From an uncultured Nitrospiraceae bacterium (GTDB lineage Bacteria > Nitrospirota > Nitrospiria > Nitrospirales > Nitrospiraceae): a stretch of DNA of 64,000 bases. Shown here in pieces: positions 7,397 to 14,484 of the stretch. Each line of letters starts with the position of its first letter. Within the stretch, counting starts at the first letter, position 1. The notes under the pieces are model-generated. The model was not told where the DNA came from. It searched no databases and was given only the letters and a program-made list of their open reading frames with translations. The stretch is taken from contig CAVSTP010000002.1 of NCBI GenBank assembly GCA_963730935.1, forward strand, positions 672,001 through 736,000. The letters are read 5' to 3'. The translations under genes were made by a program, and so were the position numbers.

Positions 7397-7567
7397 AAGC
7401 TGAACGCACCTGCAAATGGAGTTCCTGATGTGGGGCTCTTTAGGGTACTCAAAGATATGCCAATAAATCCAGAGCAGTAACGTCCCTTGGTGAATCAGGG
7501 GGGGGTGGTTCCCCGTAGGGAACGGCCTACGGCCAAGGAAAGTCATTGAGGGAAAAGGGGGTTTTGA

Positions 7568-7846
7568 TCAGCGGCCTATCTTGTATCCGTAGAGCCACCG
7601 TGAGGTGGTCTTCCCGCGGTTTCTTACGCTGTGAACGACGCCGGCGGGAATGAATACCTCTTCACCGACTGGCGGGCGAAGCACGTTACCGTCGATTTCG
7701 AATTCGACGTCACCCTCCATCGTCATCACGACCTCATCGGCCGTGTGCGTGTAATCCTCCCAGATTTGGCCGGGAGGATCAGTCCATATGTCGCAACTGA
7801 AGCCTCGGGACCGCCAGTTGGACCGAACGGAAGTGACGTCTACCAT
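7568..7846 (-). CDS. cupin domain protein
   Basis: HTADEVV..EG and IPAGVVHSVRN cupin motifs. Confidence 0.85.
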   Translation of the reverse strand: MVDVTSVRSNWRSRGFSCDIWTDPPGQIWEDYTHTADEVVMTMEGDVEFEIDGNVLRPPVGEEVFIPAGVVHSVRNRGKTTSRWLYGYKIGR

Positions 7847-7862
7847 ACAAATGCTGCGTCCA

Positions 7863-8135
7863 TTATTCTCCACGAGCTGTGACGCACTCCCTTCCCCACC
7901 CATGAAATGAGTTCACGTGATACTCGACACTCCGCACTGTTGCTATATCGCCAAGCCGCATCGCCTCTTTGCCGGTCAAGTCAAGCTTGCGACCAAGTCC
8001 GAACAAATCGAAGAGACACTCTTGACCCTGTTTCGAATCGCTAAGTGGAGGGTTCGCATATATCAACCACGTATGGGACTGGCAGCCCTCGAGCACGGGC
8101 AGCAGCATCGCGATCAGCATCAGTGATCTCTTCAT
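7863..8135 (-). CDS. small lipoprotein, TRL-like family
   Basis: GGAG RBS, lipobox LEGC, KQGQEC..LFG and C-terminal CVTARGE. Confidence 0.65.
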   Translation of the reverse strand: MKRSLMLIAMLLPVLEGCQSHTWLIYANPPLSDSKQGQECLFDLFGLGRKLDLTGKEAMRLGDIATVRSVEYHVNSFHGWGRECVTARGE

Positions 8136-8235
8136 GGCTCCCTTCTTTCCAGAAAGGGGACCCAACCGTTGTTGGCACCCTTACTCCGCTTTGAAATTGC
8201 AGGTGTTGCTTTCGCAGCCTGACTCGCGACCAAGA

Positions 8236-8421
8236 CTATGTTGAGTGCCGGTGCTGATGTTCACCGTGCTCGCCACTGTGCTGATGGTCATGGCGTTCGG
8301 TGTCGGTGCCATGCTCGTGAGCATGGGCATGCTCGTGCTCATGTTCATGTTGGTGAGTTTGAGCCGATCCATGCCTGTGTTCATGGCTGTGGACGTGCTT
8401 ATGGGAATGGGAACCCTTCAT
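8236..8421 (-). CDS. 61 aa histidine-rich microprotein, putative metal-binding
   Basis: AAAGGAG RBS before ATG; MKGSHSHKHVHSHEHRH...; 22 of 61 residues are His, in an HxHxH pattern. Confidence 0.7.
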   Translation of the reverse strand: MKGSHSHKHVHSHEHRHGSAQTHQHEHEHEHAHAHEHGTDTERHDHQHSGEHGEHQHRHST

Positions 8422-8580
8422 GGGTGGTACTCCTTTCAAACGGTTTCTTGAAATAGTACCACCCTTTCTTGAGTCATGGAATACGTGGCCGTCCACAAGT
8501 GACATTCATTGACCCGCGACTTGCTTGTTCGCGGACCATCCCTGGGCCATTGAGAATTGTTTGATTCAATAGTCGAAAAA

Positions 8581-8611
8581 TGGTGGAGGCGAGGGAACAA
8601 CCATCGTTGAC
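8581..8611. repeat. outer att junction: duplicate of tmRNA 3' end plus type-A arm
   Basis: TGGTGGAGGCGAGGG at 8581-8595 is identical to 14139-14153. ACCATCGTTGAC at 8600-8611 is the exact reverse complement of 12933-12944. Confidence 0.85.
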
Positions 8612-8712
8612 ACCAATACTACACTTTGAATTACGAAGGATGGACAGCCGTCAATGAAATGATGAAAAGTGATTGGAAATGAGTGTTCGCATTCGAGTAG
8701 GCTCGAGAGGCC

Positions 8713-10104
8713 ATGGCCCCCACTGTGCAAACGCCGCTGCATGAAGTCATATCGCGACGCGTGCGGCAAAGATTCATGAACGTCTCAAACGCGGCAGTTC
8801 CTTTCCGACGAGCAGGGGTTTACGCTTCGGCCCGCTGTCTTGAGTGGGCTCTTGTCTGTGCGCTCCTGGTAGCCTGTTCGGCACCCAAAGAGCGAGAACC
8901 CCTTCCATCCCCATCGCCAGGACCGCTTGGATGGGAAGTGCCTCCTCTCTTCTCTGCAGCGGGGCTGCTCACACCGGACTGGCTCAAAGGGCCACACCAC
9001 TCAGTCCAAGACGAACTGGTGAACGATGGCGCCCAGCACCATTTTGTGGTGAGCTCTGACTTCGGGACATTTCCTGCCGTCGGTATGCCTATGCTTCGAA
9101 CTCGAGTCGTAGAAATCGAGGCCATTGCGGCGATGAAGGATGTACGCCAATCGGAGGTGTTCGTCGATGCCCTCAGCTTCCAACTTCTCCACCCACTGCG
9201 CGGGTTGAAGATGCTGCTCACAGAGCCTCGACGTGTCGGGACTAGTGTCGGGGGTGGACTCTTGGAGTTTCTTGCCATGCCCGGACAATTTAGCAAGTTT
9301 GAGGGGAGCGACCGGGAAGATTCCATGACGAAATCGGCAATCGGTTTTTCTTATCTGAAGCGAAAACTAGCCTTTCAATTCGGGGTAGATCCCTATTCAT
9401 CCAATCCCACCTTGCAGGACGAACTGAATGAATTGACCTGGATCGCCTTCACTGCTGACCTGGCCCCTCAGATCGGGTATATTTTTATGCCAGCCAGCGC
9501 CATTATGTGGATGACCTTTAGTGCGACGCGCTGGACGTCGTACCTCGATGAACAAGTCCGCGACTATTCAGCGAACGATCTACGGGCATTGAACCGGGAC
9601 AAATTCTTGAAGATGGGAATCAGTGAGGAGGAGATCCATCAGTTCTTCCTCAACGCGCTCTATTCACCGAGACACGAGACGATCATTACCACCGCGCTAG
9701 ACGAACTCACCGGTGTTGATGGCCGGGAGGCCTTTTTATCCGTAGCCGAGGAGGCAAACTCTGAGGAACTGGTCTTATTCTACCAGCACGTGGTGGAAAT
9801 GATGCGCGGCTATCATGTGCACATAGGCGCCGTTGATCGACTGCTGGTACTGCCGCGTGTACCGGCTCTCTATACCAAGAATAAGACGCTCGTCGTGATG
9901 CTGCCCGTCGATTATTTGTTTTGGACCTCGCGCGTCGCGTCGGTCGCTCAGGCCCTGACGACGCATGTGCCCAGTCGACCTCGTATTGCCCAGCGAGAAC
10001 TCTGGATCGCCGGTAATGTCTCGCCGCGCGCCAGGCAGGAACTTGAATCGCTTGGATGGACAGTGTACGAGCAAGTCTCGGCAAAGCTTAATCCAGGGTC
10101 GTGA
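8713..10104 (+). CDS. hypothetical lipoprotein (island cargo)
   Basis: 463 aa ORF with lipobox LLVAC; the true start may be ATG 8776; no family recognised. Confidence 0.75.
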   Translation: MAPTVQTPLHEVISRRVRQRFMNVSNAAVPFRRAGVYASARCLEWALVCALLVACSAPKEREPLPSPSPGPLGWEVPPLFSAAGLLTPDWLKGPHHSVQDELVNDGAQHHFVVSSDFGTFPAVGMPMLRTRVVEIEAIAAMKDVRQSEVFVDALSFQLLHPLRGLKMLLTEPRRVGTSVGGGLLEFLAMPGQFSKFEGSDREDSMTKSAIGFSYLKRKLAFQFGVDPYSSNPTLQDELNELTWIAFTADLAPQIGYIFMPASAIMWMTFSATRWTSYLDEQVRDYSANDLRALNRDKFLKMGISEEEIHQFFLNALYSPRHETIITTALDELTGVDGREAFLSVAEEANSEELVLFYQHVVEMMRGYHVHIGAVDRLLVLPRVPALYTKNKTLVVMLPVDYLFWTSRVASVAQALTTHVPSRPRIAQRELWIAGNVSPRARQELESLGWTVYEQVSAKLNPGS

Positions 10105-10208
10105 CGCTGTCCCATCTCCTTAACACCTATATGAGACCTGATGAAGTGTGAAGGAATCGGTACGACTGGGGCAACCTGAAGCTTCAAGGTTCAAACCGCT
10201 CAAAAAAA

Positions 10209-10265
10209 TGGTGGCGGCGAACCGAGTTATAAATTATTTTCGCCGACGATTCACGTCCCCCTGCG
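10209..10265. repeat. internal att-like junction, type-B arm copy 1
   Basis: TGGTGGCGGCGA matches the tmRNA end 11/12. It is followed by 10 nt and then a 35 bp block (10231-10265) identical to 13927-13961. Confidence 0.85.
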
Positions 10266-10590
10266 GCCTTCCAAGACCCTGAAGACATCTTAACCGAACT
10301 TTGGGTGGAATAGGCTGAAATGGGCCAGAGTGAGGTGGAGTTGAGCACAAGAGAGATCCAGCCACGGCGCTATCAGTCATTTCATGGTCCCGTTGATTAA
10401 GAGTCCGGACGAAGACCCATCTCAGGACACCCAGCAGAACCAATCAGCAGCAAAAGACGAGGAATCGTGATGGCACAGATCAGCATGGATCATGGTGTGT
10501 CAGGCTGTTTTGACACCAGCTTGCCACCATCGCTTGCCCCATCGCGCCGATCATTACCGCATCGTCATGTTGCAGTGTGTGTGCAATAAG

Positions 10591-10621
10591 AAAGGCACGG
10601 TCTCGACAAAACCGTGCCTTT
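10591..10621 (-). terminator. intrinsic terminator downstream of the TOBE gene
   Basis: 11 bp stem AAAGGCACGGT/ACCGTGCCTTT, about 35 bp after the stop codon. Confidence 0.7.
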
Positions 10622-10654
10622 CAAAATGCGAAGATCGACCAATTACGATGAACG

Positions 10655-11095
10655 TTATGCTTTCTGAAGCATTACTTCGCTCGCCTTGAAGAACGCTGTC
10701 ACTTGATCCCCTTGGGTAAGTTGGAGTTCGTCGATAGCTTGCCGTGTGATTGTCGACGTGAGTTTCAACTGTCCTGCGTCCACCGTGACGCTTCCCATGG
10801 CTGTTCCCTTCTGAATGTCTGTCACCCGTCCACTCACTCTGTTTCTTGCGCTTATCTTGATTGCGCCAGCGTCTCCTTTGACAAGCATAGCTTCCGTCGA
10901 TTTGACGAATGCCACGACGGGGTCGTTCTTCCTAAGCCCCAGTTCCTGTACGGCCTGATTTGTGATCGCGGAGGTGATTCGTTGTCCTTGGGCCTGCACG
11001 GTAACGACGCTCATTGCCGTACCAGCCTGGATTTCGGATACAGTCCCACTTATCTGATTCCTCGCACTGATTTGACTCATTGTGCTTGTCGCCAT
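10655..11095 (-). CDS. di-TOBE molybdate-binding protein (molbindin, Mop/ModG-like)
   Basis: Two ISARN...ITxxAxxELxL...KxxE repeats; GGGAGG RBS. Confidence 0.92.
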   Translation of the reverse strand: MATSTMSQISARNQISGTVSEIQAGTAMSVVTVQAQGQRITSAITNQAVQELGLRKNDPVVAFVKSTEAMLVKGDAGAIKISARNRVSGRVTDIQKGTAMGSVTVDAGQLKLTSTITRQAIDELQLTQGDQVTAFFKASEVMLQKA

Positions 11096-11559
11096 TCTGT
11101 CCTCCCATATGTTGAAATGTACTCACAACAACATACGTTATCCATGGTCCATCTGATACAGGGAATAAGCCCCATGACCCGCTGATTGGGTATCAGCGCG
11201 TGATTACATAAGCTGGCTTATGCCAAGGTTTTTTTAGTCCGGTGCGCCTTTGGCGCCTAGCATCAAGTACGCGAGGGAACTGCCCAACGCAACACGCGAT
11301 ACCACCACCCCCCGGCGCCAAAAAAATCGACGTGGCGAGTTCGCGATACAACTAACTGCGACGCGGCACCAAGTTTCGACGCTGTGGAGGGTTAGCACTA
11401 GGCGTTCCCCAGTGGTCCCGCGACGCGGTAACGAGCTAAACTCCCGTGAGTCAGCAGGACTGCTCCTGCGACGGGTTACCCATAATCTCGCGCTTGGCTG
11501 TGCTGGCCGCGGGGTTGACATCTGCATGCCATGTTGATACTCGACTGTTCGGTTGACTC

Positions 11560-12585
11560 ATGGATGAACGCATCCCAATCACGGCGGCGGCACCCTGGGC
11601 CGAGAGCAGGGTGAATGGCAGCGGCCCGATCAGCCATGCGGACGTGGCAGAGGAGATCTGGCAGGCGCTCAGCCGGAAAGCCGCCGGTGAGCGTGATGTG
11701 CCGCCCCTCGGGCTCGTCGTGCAGGGCGGCGGGATGCGGGGCGTCTATTCCATGGCCGTGTTAGCGGCCTTCGAAGAGATGGGCTGGACCCGTTGCTTCG
11801 ATCACGTCGCGGGGGCGTCCGCCGGAGCCATGAACGGCGCTCATTTCATCACCGGGCAGGCCCGCTATGGCGTCGAGACGTATATCGACTATCTGAGCAA
11901 CCGGAAGTTCATCGATTTCTTCCGCCTGAGGAAGCTCGTGGACATGGACTACATGATCGACGACCTCGTCCGCCACGTGCGACCTTTCAATCTGCCGGCC
12001 TTGCTGGAGGCGTCCACCGAGTTGCACATTGCCCTCGCCGACGCCGAAGACGCCTCCGTGCATTACGTGACGAACCGATCAGAGGATGTGGACCTGTGGG
12101 AAGCGTTTCGCGCCACGGGTGCGCTGCCGATCCTTTACAATCGGTTCGTCAAGGTTGGCGACCGGTTGTATCTGGACGGGAGCCTCAGCGACGGCCTCCC
12201 GCTGCCCCGCCTCCTGGCGCTCGGGTGCCGCTACATCGTGGTCGTCTTGACGAAACCGCTGTCGTTCCGGAGTCAGCGGGTGAGCCGGCCCGTTCGCACG
12301 CTGGCCTGGTGGGCGACGCGCCAGTACAGCCCGGCACTGAAGCGCGCCCTCTTTGACGTCAACCTGGACTTCAATCGTACCATGTCCGTACTGGCCGCGC
12401 CGGCACAAGCACGCCTCCACGAGGCAGTTAGAATTTTGGTCATTGCGCCACGCAGTAAGGAGCACCTCGTGCGGTGTGTCACGACGGACCCGCGACGGCT
12501 GAGACGGTGTGCGCGGCAAGGGCGAGCGGACGCGTGGCAAGCCTTCGGCCAGCGGCCCCCTGCCACGACGCATCCATTCCAATGA
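11560..12585 (+). CDS. patatin-like phospholipase
   Basis: Oxyanion GGGMRG, nucleophile GASAG, catalytic DG motif in YLDGSLSD. Confidence 0.9.
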   Translation: MDERIPITAAAPWAESRVNGSGPISHADVAEEIWQALSRKAAGERDVPPLGLVVQGGGMRGVYSMAVLAAFEEMGWTRCFDHVAGASAGAMNGAHFITGQARYGVETYIDYLSNRKFIDFFRLRKLVDMDYMIDDLVRHVRPFNLPALLEASTELHIALADAEDASVHYVTNRSEDVDLWEAFRATGALPILYNRFVKVGDRLYLDGSLSDGLPLPRLLALGCRYIVVVLTKPLSFRSQRVSRPVRTLAWWATRQYSPALKRALFDVNLDFNRTMSVLAAPAQARLHEAVRILVIAPRSKEHLVRCVTTDPRRLRRCARQGRADAWQAFGQRPPATTHPFQ

Positions 12586-12875
12586 GACCACGCGTCGTCC
12601 GGTCTCTTCTCCTTCTCTGAAGCAGTCTATATGGTCTTCGGACCTAAGACGGCCTTTCTCGAAAAAGGCTTGTGGTGTGCATTTAGGGAATCTCCCAGTC
12701 AAACCTTCCCACGCTTCGTCGTATAAGTTACGCCTCTTGAGAGGCGCACTGTAGTCTGATGGGTGCACCAACTCATAGTAAGGCTGGACTTCGCGCCCAC
12801 CGAAGTCGGGCCTTCTTATTTATCCGGACAGGCTGAACTCAAATAGAACCGACCTATCCTGTGCGCCTGTCCCCC

Positions 12876-12998
12876 CGCTACCGCTTCACGGCAACCGGGA
12901 CATTTGACCACCTATTGACCGGGGCGACCTTGGTCAACGATGGTGTTGGCGGCGAACCGATACCTAAATTATTTTGCGCATCGATTCGCGTTCCCTAA
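12876..12998 (+). pseudogene. C-terminal remnant of a probable large serine recombinase spanning the A/B att junction
   Basis: Startless frame RYRFTATGTFDHLLTGATLVNDGVGGEPIPKLFCASIRVP*. It contains type-A arm 12933-12944, core GA 12954-12955 and type-B arm 12966-12975. The family call is from recalled sequence pattern and position, not from a search. Confidence 0.55.
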
Positions 12999-13165
12999 CG
13001 ACCTTCTAAGGCCTCGAAAACAATCTAACCAGGACGCGATGGAGACGGTCAAGAACCGGACAGCTGCATTCACTTTAGAAGCAGCTGGGTATTGTCGGAT
13101 TGACGTTTTTTGCGAATCTCTTTATGAGAAAAGTCCAAAAAATGTCACAAAGGAGGATTACCGTC

Positions 13166-13882
13166 ATGACGATGGAATTACTTGAAGTGCGTCTGCGTAG
13201 CTTGGAGCGGCGAAACGCTCGGCTGAGGATTGCTGTTATGCTCGTCGCCGTGCTAGCCGTCGGAGCGACCCTCGTCAGTGTGTCAGAGAACCTCTGGGCC
13301 GATCTTCCTGCGCCGTTCTGGGCCGATGCTCCTCAGACGATGGTCCAAGATACCGTAAAGACAAAACGAATCGAAGTGGTCGATACGGATGGTAAGTTAC
13401 TGGCCGTTCTCGGCAAGTTGACCGATGGCCTCAACCGGACGAGCACCGGCCTTGCTCTCGTCTCCAATAACAAACAAGTAGTCCGATTGACGCTGGATAC
13501 GGACAGCGATGGCTCATTGAACCACGCGACATTGACGGTTTCAGATCCCAAAGATGCGGAACAGAAAGAGTTGTTCAGAGTGGGGGTGACCTCAGTCGGC
13601 GAGGGTATTGGATTATTCCCTGGACTGCTATTCGAGAATCGAGATTACTTCACAAGGATGGAGCCGGACGGTCTGAAAATAGCAGTGAAGACCGAGAAAG
13701 ATGAATATGCGGAGGCTATTTCGCTCCGGGCTAACGAGGACAGTTCGGCAACGCTCACTCTCGGCGGGCTTTTCAAGCCTTTCAAGGTCCGCGCAATCGC
13801 AGAAGCTGACAAGCCGAGGCTCGTGTTAGAGAAAGGCGAAGGGAAAAACCGAAAGATTAAGACCTACGGCTTAGCCCCATAG
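13166..13882 (+). CDS. hypothetical membrane-anchored protein (island cargo)
   Basis: AGGAGG RBS at 13151-13156, short coiled coil, one TM helix, then a beta-rich domain. Confidence 0.75.
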   Translation: MTMELLEVRLRSLERRNARLRIAVMLVAVLAVGATLVSVSENLWADLPAPFWADAPQTMVQDTVKTKRIEVVDTDGKLLAVLGKLTDGLNRTSTGLALVSNNKQVVRLTLDTDSDGSLNHATLTVSDPKDAEQKELFRVGVTSVGEGIGLFPGLLFENRDYFTRMEPDGLKIAVKTEKDEYAEAISLRANEDSSATLTLGGLFKPFKVRAIAEADKPRLVLEKGEGKNRKIKTYGLAP

Positions 13883-13914
13883 CATCGACGGGCTATAAAG
13901 ACGACGGATCCCAT

Positions 13915-13961
13915 GAACCGATACTGAAATTATTTTCGCCGACGATTCACGTCCCCCTGCG
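13915..13961. repeat. internal att-like junction, type-B arm copy 3
   Basis: GAACCGA-TACTG-AAATTATTTTCGCCGACGATTCACGTCCCCCTGCG. Similarity to the other copies starts exactly at GA 13915-13916. Confidence 0.85.
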
Positions 13962-13989
13962 TCCTAGTTCAAGGGGTGGCCGCCCGTTC

Positions 13990-14160
13990 CGGGGGATCCT
14001 GCGCGACTTGATGGGCAGGGAGATCGCCCTACACCCGATCGCCGACGCAGCCGAGCGCTACTTGACCGCCGAGGTGTCAGGGGACTACGCAGGGCTCTTT
14101 CGGCTCATCGCCGGGAAACAGAATGCCAAAAATAATTTTGGTGGAGGCGAGGGGAGTTGA
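13990..14160 (+). pseudogene. C-terminal remnant of a second probable serine recombinase reading into the tmRNA antisense strand
   Basis: RGILRDLMGREIALHPIADAAERYLTAEVSGDYAGLFRLIAGKQNAKNNFGGGEGS*. It contains arm AAAATAATTT at 14129-14138. The family call is pattern-based. Confidence 0.55.
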
Positions 14161-14484
14161 ACCCCTGTCCGAAGATCGTCAACACACCGCATCTACATGT
14201 GTAGCCGACAATTTAACTTCGCCGCCATCCACGCCCATCGGCAGGCTTAGAACGGCCGCTAGCCCAGAAAGTTCTCGTCCTCAGCCGCTGAGCACCGGCC
14301 TTGGACCAGCCCGCTGCATCGCGCCCTTCCACCCCCGCGGGCCTCAGATGGAAGAACGTCACAGCTGATTAAGCTGCGAGTGCCAGTTCTTGATTGGCAG
14401 TTGCATTTTCCCGGAGTTAACGAGTCCCCGAGAGCTCGACATGCCACGGTGGTATCAGTATCCCCGTCGAAACCGGTCGCCCCC
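14139..14484 (-). ncRNA. ssrA: tmRNA
   Basis: 5' GGGGGCGACCGGTTTCGAC; 3' T-arm GGGGTTCAACTCCCC followed by TCGCCTCCACCA; tag frame ANQELALAA* at 14398-14369. Confidence 0.97.

Follow-up and report, generated by a model that had tools for sequence, protein, structure and literature searches.

Composite SCCmec islands are built of tandem units, some of which carry no recombinase. The enzymes behind the locus described here resemble the Ccr proteins of SCCmec in being large serine recombinases (LSRs) that insert at the 3' end of a single-copy gene, but they score 103 and 56 bits in the Ccr family against a cut-off of 900 and are thus not CcrA, CcrB or CcrC. Moreover, SCCmec has a CcrA/CcrB pair, whereas here we find a single recombinase gene and an RNA-gene target. 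Other parallels are known from two groups of bacteria. In Dehalococcoides, islands lie in tandem behind ssrA and accrete through the serine recombinase DsiB, whose gene overlaps the att site at its 3' end and has a context-dependent stop codon; 15 of 31 islands lack an integration module and were proposed to be mobilisable in cis (PMC3146451). In streptococci, CIMEs are integrase-free, decayed elements that keep their att sites at the 3' end of a target gene. They span 1.2-13 kb with cargo, or 130-220 bp without it as microCIMEs, and the most decayed lie outermost (PMC7563491). The platform idea is already published for both.

The locus analysed here lies in a 64-kb stretch of DNA from an uncultured Nitrospiraceae bacterium (the window, in full). 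Compared by description, it shares with Dehalococcoides the tandem ssrA islands and a recombinase 3' end that overlaps att. The two differ in where insertion is placed, which is the T-loop in Dehalococcoides and a predicted crossover 10 nt from the 3' end here; in the company of the recombinase, a conserved six-gene module with a second small recombinase in Dehalococcoides and variable neighbours here; and in size, the Dehalococcoides islands being much larger than our units. The available text of PMC3146451 does not describe symmetric attP arms, an ssrA-like tail, a tRNA-Ala switch or a conserved non-coding end. As in CIMEs and microCIMEs, decayed units in tandem at a gene's 3' end have lost recombination genes and kept att halves. 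However, CIMEs are described as deriving from ICEs or IMEs and moving in cis only, whereas intact relatives here are satellite- or prophage-like. Also unlike CIMEs as described, the smallest remnant lies nearest the target and some units, which we call Q units, have a conserved end of their own.

Read outward from the tmRNA gene, the array comprises the following features in window coordinates.

14139..14484, minus strand: tmRNA (ssrA), whose 3' end serves as integration target; encoded tag ANQELALAA
14129..14150, plus strand: tmRNA-proximal junction, with type B left arm (14129-14138), 10-nt tmRNA end and GA (14149-14150)
13990..14160, plus strand: C-terminal stub of a type B large serine recombinase, running into the tmRNA and stopping there
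13915..14149, plus strand: gene-less micro-remnant of 234 bp, type B right half, arm 13927-13936
13100..13882, plus strand: cargo ORF, probable membrane-anchored protein
12933..13030, plus strand: hybrid junction, type A left arm 12933-12944, GA at 12954
12873..12956, plus strand: remnant C-terminus of a type A large serine recombinase (79% identity with intact P0001 across 28 aa)
11560..12585, plus strand: patatin-like phospholipase cargo
10655..11095, minus strand: molybdenum-pterin binding protein cargo, molbindin-like, with two TOBE domains
10209..10295, plus strand: GA junction at 10219, followed by a type B right half, arm 10231-10240, and its tail
10073..10208, plus strand: Q end, conserved and non-coding, with a hairpin and an A-run, forming the right end of recombinase-free units
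8713..10104, plus strand: cargo ORF, probable lipoprotein
8518..8634, plus strand: weak Q-like end (8518-8580), then GA at 8591 and type A right arm 8600-8611
8236..8505, minus strand: short His-rich cargo ORF
8155..8222, plus strand: sixth half-junction, a type A right half whose 19-codon tail is intact and ends FAA-stop

Over 56 aa the type B stub shares 73% identity with the intact L144 enzyme, and the tail of the 234-bp micro-remnant is fused to it in frame. To the left of 13915 only the GA is kept, the rest not being a tmRNA copy. The right half of the hybrid junction is type B (arm 12966-12975) with a decayed tail. At 8591 the spacer has a 2-nt deletion, the tail is truncated and the adjoining Q-like end scores weakly (E 0.16). 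The sixth half-junction near 8155, which an earlier note on this DNA missed, has lost its left side in the window, which is intact in L004, where the 436-bp unit holding the His-rich ORF recurs at 94% identity. Neither the lipoprotein nor the membrane-protein ORF matched a Pfam or NCBIfam family, and the latter was not found in 32 other genomes of the genus. The phospholipase has a 91% identical copy at ssrA in L013, adjoining a decayed type A recombinase, and a 98% identical copy at a different locus in G030. Just before the lipoprotein ORF (~8636-8700) lies a 3' gene remnant; L015 has this gene in full.

The earlier note aligned five junctions on one GA dinucleotide (8591, 10219, 12954, 13915 and 14149), and all five lie where it put them. 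Joining 14149 to 10219, 12954 or 13915 rebuilds the perfect 10-bp type B inverted repeat centred on GA, while 12954 joined to 8591 alone yields the perfect 12-bp type A pair, offset by 2 nt. The remaining 21 of 25 possible left/right joins give arms of at most 6 bp. The note had predicted that type A lost 2 nt. The deletion is real, because relatives have a 9-nt spacer after GA (7 in the window) and a continuous reading frame; their spacer also rules out a type A centre shifted one base to the left. Could the repeats be chance, or the junctions a product of assembly? The type B arm is indeed a low-complexity, A+T-rich sequence, and the genome assembly consists of six contigs. Against this, random GA pairs from the same contig gave arms of at least 10 bp in only 4 of 200,000 trials, and intact elements elsewhere are closed by the same arms. 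Four studies also yielded near-identical contigs that span the junctions with 0-8 differences; these independent contigs show that the junctions are not an assembly artefact. We regard the probability of either as negligible.

As judged from sequence, the arms correspond to the 3' ends of two LSR genes, only distantly related, whose reading frames cross attP. The window stubs match the C-termini of intact relatives, and comparison across genomes bears out the note's proposal of large serine recombinases with two specificities, our types A and B. Searching for full-length recombinases that end in the window peptides returned intact enzymes at tmRNA and tRNA-Ala(CGC) in Nitrospiraceae, at tmRNA one of type B (L087) and four of type A (L126, L127, L129, L132). 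Resolvase, recombinase and zinc-ribbon Pfam domains all score above cut-off in intact relatives of both types. The arms are thus linked to recombinase genes elsewhere. Intact carriers are elements of 14-23 kb, satellite-like or (filamentous-)prophage-like, in which the subset of ORFs scanned includes primase, helicase, terminase, prohead protease, Rep_trans or Zot-family ATPase domains. The recombinase gene comes with the incoming element, and its neighbours vary from one element to the next. No match to a core plus tail was found in the viral collection.

At both targets the crossover is predicted to fall 10 nt from the 3' end of the RNA gene. The two targets differ at the core only, GA at tmRNA and CA at tRNA-Ala(CGC), and comparison with relatives supports the note's crossover at GA. 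The attP sites have the form of ~40-50 bp with inverted arms around a 2-bp crossover. In eight elements with both ends, arms are symmetric at equal offsets at 5-10 of 12 positions (8, 10 and 9 at the tmRNA elements). Secondary sites lose the host-like flank and keep the dinucleotide alone; among 18 flagged cases, nine are in register, eight are out of register by 1-2 nt and the remaining one reflects a deletion. In serine integrases, the central dinucleotide is known to specify the site used (PMC10083194). Here that dinucleotide appears as a natural tmRNA/tRNA-Ala switch; the main text of the paper, on orthogonal cores, names no tRNA, tmRNA or ssrA.

Combining these observations, we are confident that the tandem array arose by recombinase-driven accretion with decay. 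Newcomers would insert at the tmRNA-proximal GA and displace older units outward, and later internal deletions would strip out module genes along with the recombinase, so that stubs, a single chimera with a type B left and a type A right end, and the 234-bp micro-remnant are left. Repeated stacking at ssrA is upheld by relatives, whose ssrA-downstream content varies rather than keeping one gene order, and stub length ranges across genomes from ~80 bp to a near-whole pseudogene. The window holds deletion-trimmed remnants of larger elements, rather than an integron.

The note had instead inferred an integron-like accretion platform of short cargo units. In its strict form, such a platform would have a resident dedicated integrase collecting single-gene cassettes at a fixed site behind a common promoter. 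The stacking at a single site of small units that have conserved ends yet unrelated cargo does give that impression. But most units are internally deleted remnants (stubs, the chimera, the gene fragment); cargo genes lie in either orientation, with several in some units and none in others; and the recombinase arrives on the incoming element. No integrase domain lies in the window: none of 13 Phage_integrase matches falls inside it, and no linked IntI was found. Five of the six junctions lack attC-like pairs, and two attC pattern matches near 8155 do not mark unit ends. Capture by a resident integrase is therefore very improbable. A promoter and terminator scan stayed at chance level.

The note was right that no intact integrase is present, in that the 64-kb window holds no LSR, resolvase or tyrosine-integrase domain, although the partial stubs at 12873-12956 and 13990-14157 remain. 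We found no cognate intact recombinase in this genome either, and four contig sets show neither recombination nor a circle or empty-site joint at any att site. Here the array is probably frozen at present. In the contig data, X1 and X2 have coverage gaps over ~13100-14000, which are uninformative.

Trans mobilisation, which the note had raised for the whole array, gains indirect support for Q-ended units alone, a family that the note did not recognise. Q is a conserved non-coding end of ~140 bp that includes the left halves at 8591 and 10219. The units that it closes are recombinase-free, span 0.4-4.5 kb and sit, across three genera, at three target types: tmRNA, tRNA-Ala-type cores and a dispersed repeat. 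Recombinase similarity lies within 400 nt upstream of 0 of 20 distinct Q ends, compared with 31 of 35 type A/B ends. Where the far end of a unit is visible, Q is always partnered with a recombinase-type right half. Thirteen units have their ends in common but not their cargo, except for one orthologous pair. In G361 and G339, units whose left end is type A and whose right end is Q split the dispersed repeat exactly at CA. The two differ in cargo, and their ends are 78-84% identical to a unit of the tRNA-Ala core type in G369; the repeat itself is unsplit in 23 of 26 matches examined. L083 was not counted as a second clean insertion, as its right junction fails to restore the repeat.

Several points count against the mini-element reading. 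The Q sequence is divergent, with an A-run of variable length and an arm-like motif that sits ~3 bp nearer the crossover than the type A arm. In this genome's tRNA-Ala array, Q-like ends are partnered with type B right halves as well. The Q model was itself trained on 14 of the Q sequences. Because of the divergence, a DNA search with one Q end matched only 4 of 371 genomes. Several other identities for Q were set aside. Its presence at a non-tRNA repeat and tRNA-Ala-type cores rules out the host's normal tmRNA trailer, the lack of a match among 60 recombinase loci rules out a region upstream of the recombinase gene, and neither Q nor the left-end region matched Rfam at gathering score.

The most serious alternative is that all units once encoded a recombinase, and that none now moves alone. 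Q would then either terminate an autonomous subfamily not yet sampled or be a small sequence that overwrote the recombinase end, and units would move only in cis, alongside a neighbour in the manner of CIMEs, or exchange cargo homologously between conserved ends. Much at the locus fits this reading: stubs of differing length, the chimera between 10219 and 12954, the piece of a gene ahead of the lipoprotein, and differing cargo at one repeat locus, as expected from swapping in place. Published CIME and ssrA-island arrays look similar. The six Q-at-repeat junctions have one common right flank and probably trace back to a single insertion, which may at that stage have had a recombinase aboard. 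In L161, L024 and L015, recombinase ends at the 3' ends of tRNAs have been overwritten by small hairpin repeats, so Q may be another such element. Nor is a cognate intact enzyme found here or in the five Q-bearing genomes listed, apart from a frameshifted copy in G369; G028 and G339 lack any recombinase domain. Decay alone does not, however, readily account for the absence of Q from 60 recombinase loci and eight fully fetched autonomous elements, its constant pairing with recombinase-type right halves, its absence from tmRNA flanks without an array, or related Q ends at three target types in three genera. We give decay alone a substantial minority share of the probability. For the two distal units, the likeliest reading is that of non-autonomous mini-elements that a helper recombinase moves; for Q-ended units as a class, mobility in trans is plausible but falls slightly short of an even call.

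Because the recombinase gene runs across attP, integration would split it, with the body ending just inside the RNA gene and a tail of ~20 codons staying at the far end. The type A tail is encoded solely in the attP form and ends in an ssrA-like ALAA. Among its copies, 59 of 69 have 19 codons and then a stop, all three stop codons occur, and 36 of the 59 end in AA; none of the 10 type B tails listed does, making the tag a type A trait. The substitution pattern indicates that the tail is under coding constraint, with pN/pS of 0.46 against 0.84 and 1.70 in shifted frames, values taken pairwise among relatives that are not independent, and with one reverse frame at 0.57. AlphaFold, run on the C-terminal half of a natural recombinase plus the tail with a 32-row alignment, draws the tail as a helix (block means 45-59); this low confidence gives no verdict either way on a tail that completes a beta-sheet. 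No full-length intact type A enzyme with an ALAA tail was found.

These features suggest that integration would strip the recombinase of a degron, and we think that the type A tail probably acts as one. The enzyme would be tagged when excised and untagged when integrated, and an adjacent type A newcomer would re-tag a resident recombinase. Mageeney et al. 2020, on regulated gene integrity, may already describe integrase genes split by attP. In mycobacteriophages with integration-dependent immunity, attP lies within a gene and integration removes a C-terminal ssrA-like AA tag, which is left at the far att site; in tandems, a neighbouring remnant can re-tag the resident protein (PMC9934374). The split gene described there is a repressor, whereas here it is the serine recombinase itself.

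Taken whole, accretion, internal decay, Q mini-elements and a type A tail degron form our best explanation, one we hold with moderate confidence. It is unlikely, though worth stating, that Q mini-elements hijack satellite or prophage recombinases to enter tmRNA, tRNA-Ala or a dispersed repeat and exchange cargo between their conserved ends, and that the split degron self-regulates the enzyme, with integration stabilising it and a later type A insertion re-tagging and silencing the resident copy, which locks the array. In the literature searched, we found no prior type A recombinase tail degron, core-only tmRNA/tRNA-Ala difference or Q end. It has long been held that serine integrases require little beyond a separate directionality protein. 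A degron stripped from the integrase by integration would, if true, be a compact new control, and would answer why DsiB of Dehalococcoides overlaps its att site. The two-base tmRNA/tRNA-Ala switch provides an orthogonal pair of landing sites in a near-universal gene. If Q units are decayed only, the locus is a well-mapped case of known island accretion. If they are mobile, they would be the serine-integrase counterpart of miniature non-autonomous transposons and would explain an accessory-gene hot spot in nitrifiers.

The array abuts the 3' end of the tmRNA gene:

14139-14484, minus strand: tmRNA gene (ssrA), tag ANQELALAA

Five junctions align on GA at 8591, 10219, 12954, 13915 and 14149, exactly where the earlier note had placed them. 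At ~8155 there is one more half-junction, the sixth. The window has lost its left side, which is intact in a related locus, L004; window and L004 share a 436-bp unit at 94% identity. When every left side was joined to every right side, both inverted repeats rebuilt in the note reappeared: three of 25 joins gave a 10-bp arm pair centred on GA (type B), one gave a 12-bp pair offset by 2 nt (type A), and the other 21 had arms of at most 6 bp. Random GA pairs equalled such arms in 4 of 200,000 trials. The suspected loss of 2 nt from the type A spacer at 8591 is confirmed, because in relatives the right arm follows GA by 9 nt and the frame is open. Contigs from four studies cover the junctions (7507-8849, 10030-10966, 12798-13171 and 13643-14170, the last with zero differences from the window), and none of these junction-spanning contigs contains a joint at any att site. 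The window also carries three distinct dispersed repeats (10389-10530, 11309-11400 and 12740-12863), each repeated several times in this genome and in related ones. A short ORF at 8236-8505 has a His-Glu-rich stretch and no Pfam or NCBIfam match; its product is possibly metal-binding.

Sequence comparison identifies the arms as the 3' ends of recombinase genes. The frame at 13990-14157 matches the C-terminus of an intact 561-residue enzyme (73% identity over 56 residues), and the frame at 12873-12956 matches a second intact enzyme (79% over 28 residues); both enzymes have resolvase, recombinase and zinc-ribbon domains. Full-length recombinases ending in the window's stub peptides, for which the earlier note proposed a search, are present in relatives. 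At the thresholds used, the type B query matched in 54 of 371 family genomes and the type A query in 58, both counts taking in enzymes with other targets. In the 60 best loci, frames run open into tmRNA for type B at L087 and for type A at L126, L127, L129 and L132; other open frames terminate inside tRNA-Ala(CGC), and more distant enzymes in tRNA-Met, -Ser or -Glu. The eight elements fetched with both ends span 6-23 kb, mostly 14-23 kb, and their arms are symmetric at 5-10 of 12 positions at the window's offsets. The ORFs scanned in three of the elements include genes for a primase, a prohead protease, a helicase, a terminase small subunit, a Rep_trans protein and a Zot-family ATPase, a content that suggests satellites and filamentous prophages. 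Satellite-like elements occupy tmRNA at L144:3784-19585 (primase, prohead protease, LAGLIDADG-like protein) and L146-L147 (helicase, terminase small subunit). Filamentous-phage-like elements with Rep_trans, a Zot-family ATPase and a large serine recombinase are integrated at tRNA-Ala in L155, L157 and L153; in L155 and L157 the cargo includes an ORF of ~2,400 residues.

Around the crossover, tmRNA and tRNA-Ala(CGC) differ solely in the two bases that turn GA into CA. Among 69 distinct type A right halves, the core dinucleotide in register is CA in 42 and GA in 14. In 18 of the 69 the left side was flagged as unlike the host sequence: nine prove to be genuine secondary sites, in which CA or GA is retained, another eight are shifted in register by 1-2 nt, and the last is the deleted 8155 site. 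A quick tree was built from 57 of 92 enzymes, after 35 tRNA-Ala rows had been removed at random and with database proteins labelled according to their last residues; it places types A and B far apart, with tmRNA and tRNA-Ala members inside each, and its well-supported branches require three tmRNA-label changes. A dispersed repeat of genus g42 (L177-L200) is a secondary CA target, and its copies hold type A right halves beside different genes at L068, L072, L081 and L083.

Such arrays decay and vary. The type A right half is present in 62 of 371 genomes. An att half or recombinase stub was flagged at 10 of 31 fetched tmRNA flanks, of which L032 was judged a false match and several of the other nine are short contigs. 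Gene order downstream of ssrA, a comparison raised in the earlier note, differs in every array, as does cargo. Stub length runs from ~80 bp up to a nearly complete but frameshifted gene in L013, a locus that also has the patatin gene at 91% identity. In the unit at 10219-12954 a type B left end is combined with a type A right end, as would be explained by a deletion spanning two elements. The lipoprotein gene sits after the 3' remnant of a gene that L015 carries whole, and both it and the patatin gene are found at further loci lacking these att halves. The window's genome encodes three further large serine recombinases, which end at tRNA-Glu, tRNA-Met and a contig end (the last frameshifted); none of the three is cognate to the array. 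A second array in this genome, at tRNA-Ala(CGC) (C4:1426666-1442200), is made up of one type B stub, a pair of type B right halves and a pair of Q-like ends; a type A N-terminal fragment lies close by. Elsewhere in the genome, a lone type A right half whose core is CA (C3:408770-408860) is followed by paralogous repeat-rich lipoprotein-like genes, and C3:876800-879300 contains displaced tRNA-Met 3' copies and a type B-related stub. L056 has six type A right halves in 18 kb, one inverted.

At both 8591 and 10219 the left half is something other than recombinase sequence: it aligns with a ~140-bp non-coding end of relatives, here called Q (the 8591 copy weakly, E 0.16). A profile trained on 14 ends gave 45 matches, 20 distinct, every one directly before a core. 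Recombinase similarity within 400 nt upstream was found at 0 of 20 distinct Q ends versus 31 of 35 type A/B ends. A set of thirteen units, 436-4545 bp long, have ends in common and carry unrelated cargo, save the orthologous window/L004 pair. Of 26 examined matches to a dispersed repeat of another genus, 23 are unsplit; in G361 and G339 this repeat is interrupted at CA by a unit whose left end is type A and whose right end is Q (2.5 and 1.2 kb, different cargo). The right junction recurs in four more genomes, so the Q junctions at this repeat probably go back to one insertion, with cargo exchanged later. This repeat-splitting unit has ends that are 78-84% identical to those of a G369 unit of the tRNA-Ala core type. 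Pattern scans contributed another three metagenome contigs and another six genome loci; Q was not found in 60 recombinase loci or in intact elements. Q-ended units may be mobile in trans, a reading we put slightly short of even. Against it, recombinase ends are overwritten by hairpin repeats at tRNA 3' ends, type B halves too are found paired with Q-like ends, and movement was not observed. The hairpin units, tandem and ~85-90 bp long, terminate precisely at the 3' ends of tRNA or tmRNA and take the place of recombinase ends in L161 and L024; they occur beside tmRNA at L015:6890-7212 and L018-L021 and, in the window's genome, beside tRNA-Ser, -Trp, -Ala and -Gly, and are possibly a separate small mobile element.

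The type A tail is somewhat more likely than not to be a degron. Of its 69 copies (70 rows less one non-tail row), 59 comprise 19 codons and a stop (TAG 31, TGA 19, TAA 9); 36 of the 59 end in AA and 21 in LAA, and the host tmRNA tag ends in ALAA. Over tail codons 5-19, pN/pS is 0.46, compared with 0.84 and 1.70 in shifted frames and 0.57-1.49 on the other strand (pairwise values, not independent). Integrated enzymes have no tail. Stubs are often fused naturally to a neighbour's tail, and every such fusion with the ALAA tail is a fragment or a broken gene; none of ten listed type B tails ends in AA. Clp proteases read ssrA-like ALAA ends. The available part of PMC9934374 states this for phage repressors too and describes an ssrA-like tag on a repressor, split by attP; here, in contrast, the putative split tag belongs to the serine recombinase itself.

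The earlier note's observations hold, extended by the ~8155 half-junction, as does serine-recombinase stacking at ssrA; its integron-like platform does not. The array is not an integron and, as far as the accessible portions of these papers go, works like the Dehalococcoides ssrA islands (tandem and accreting, their serine recombinase overlapping the att site and the integration module missing from 15 of 31; PMC3146451) and like CIMEs and microCIMEs (PMC7563491). SCCmec identity was rejected. Within the portions available, PMC12884075 notes tandem insertion at a reconstituted site, and PMC10083194 treats core dinucleotide swapping, the words tRNA, tmRNA and ssrA being absent from its main text. 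The literature searched, with few subscription papers, held no description of a degron split off a serine recombinase itself, a tmRNA/tRNA-Ala switch, Q-like ends or such arrays in Nitrospira; since subscription papers lay mostly outside the search, this is no proof of novelty. The broadest reading, which we consider rather unlikely, is that Q-ended, recombinase-free mini-elements would hijack satellite and prophage recombinases and swap cargo, while an attP-split degron would let the recombinase regulate itself.
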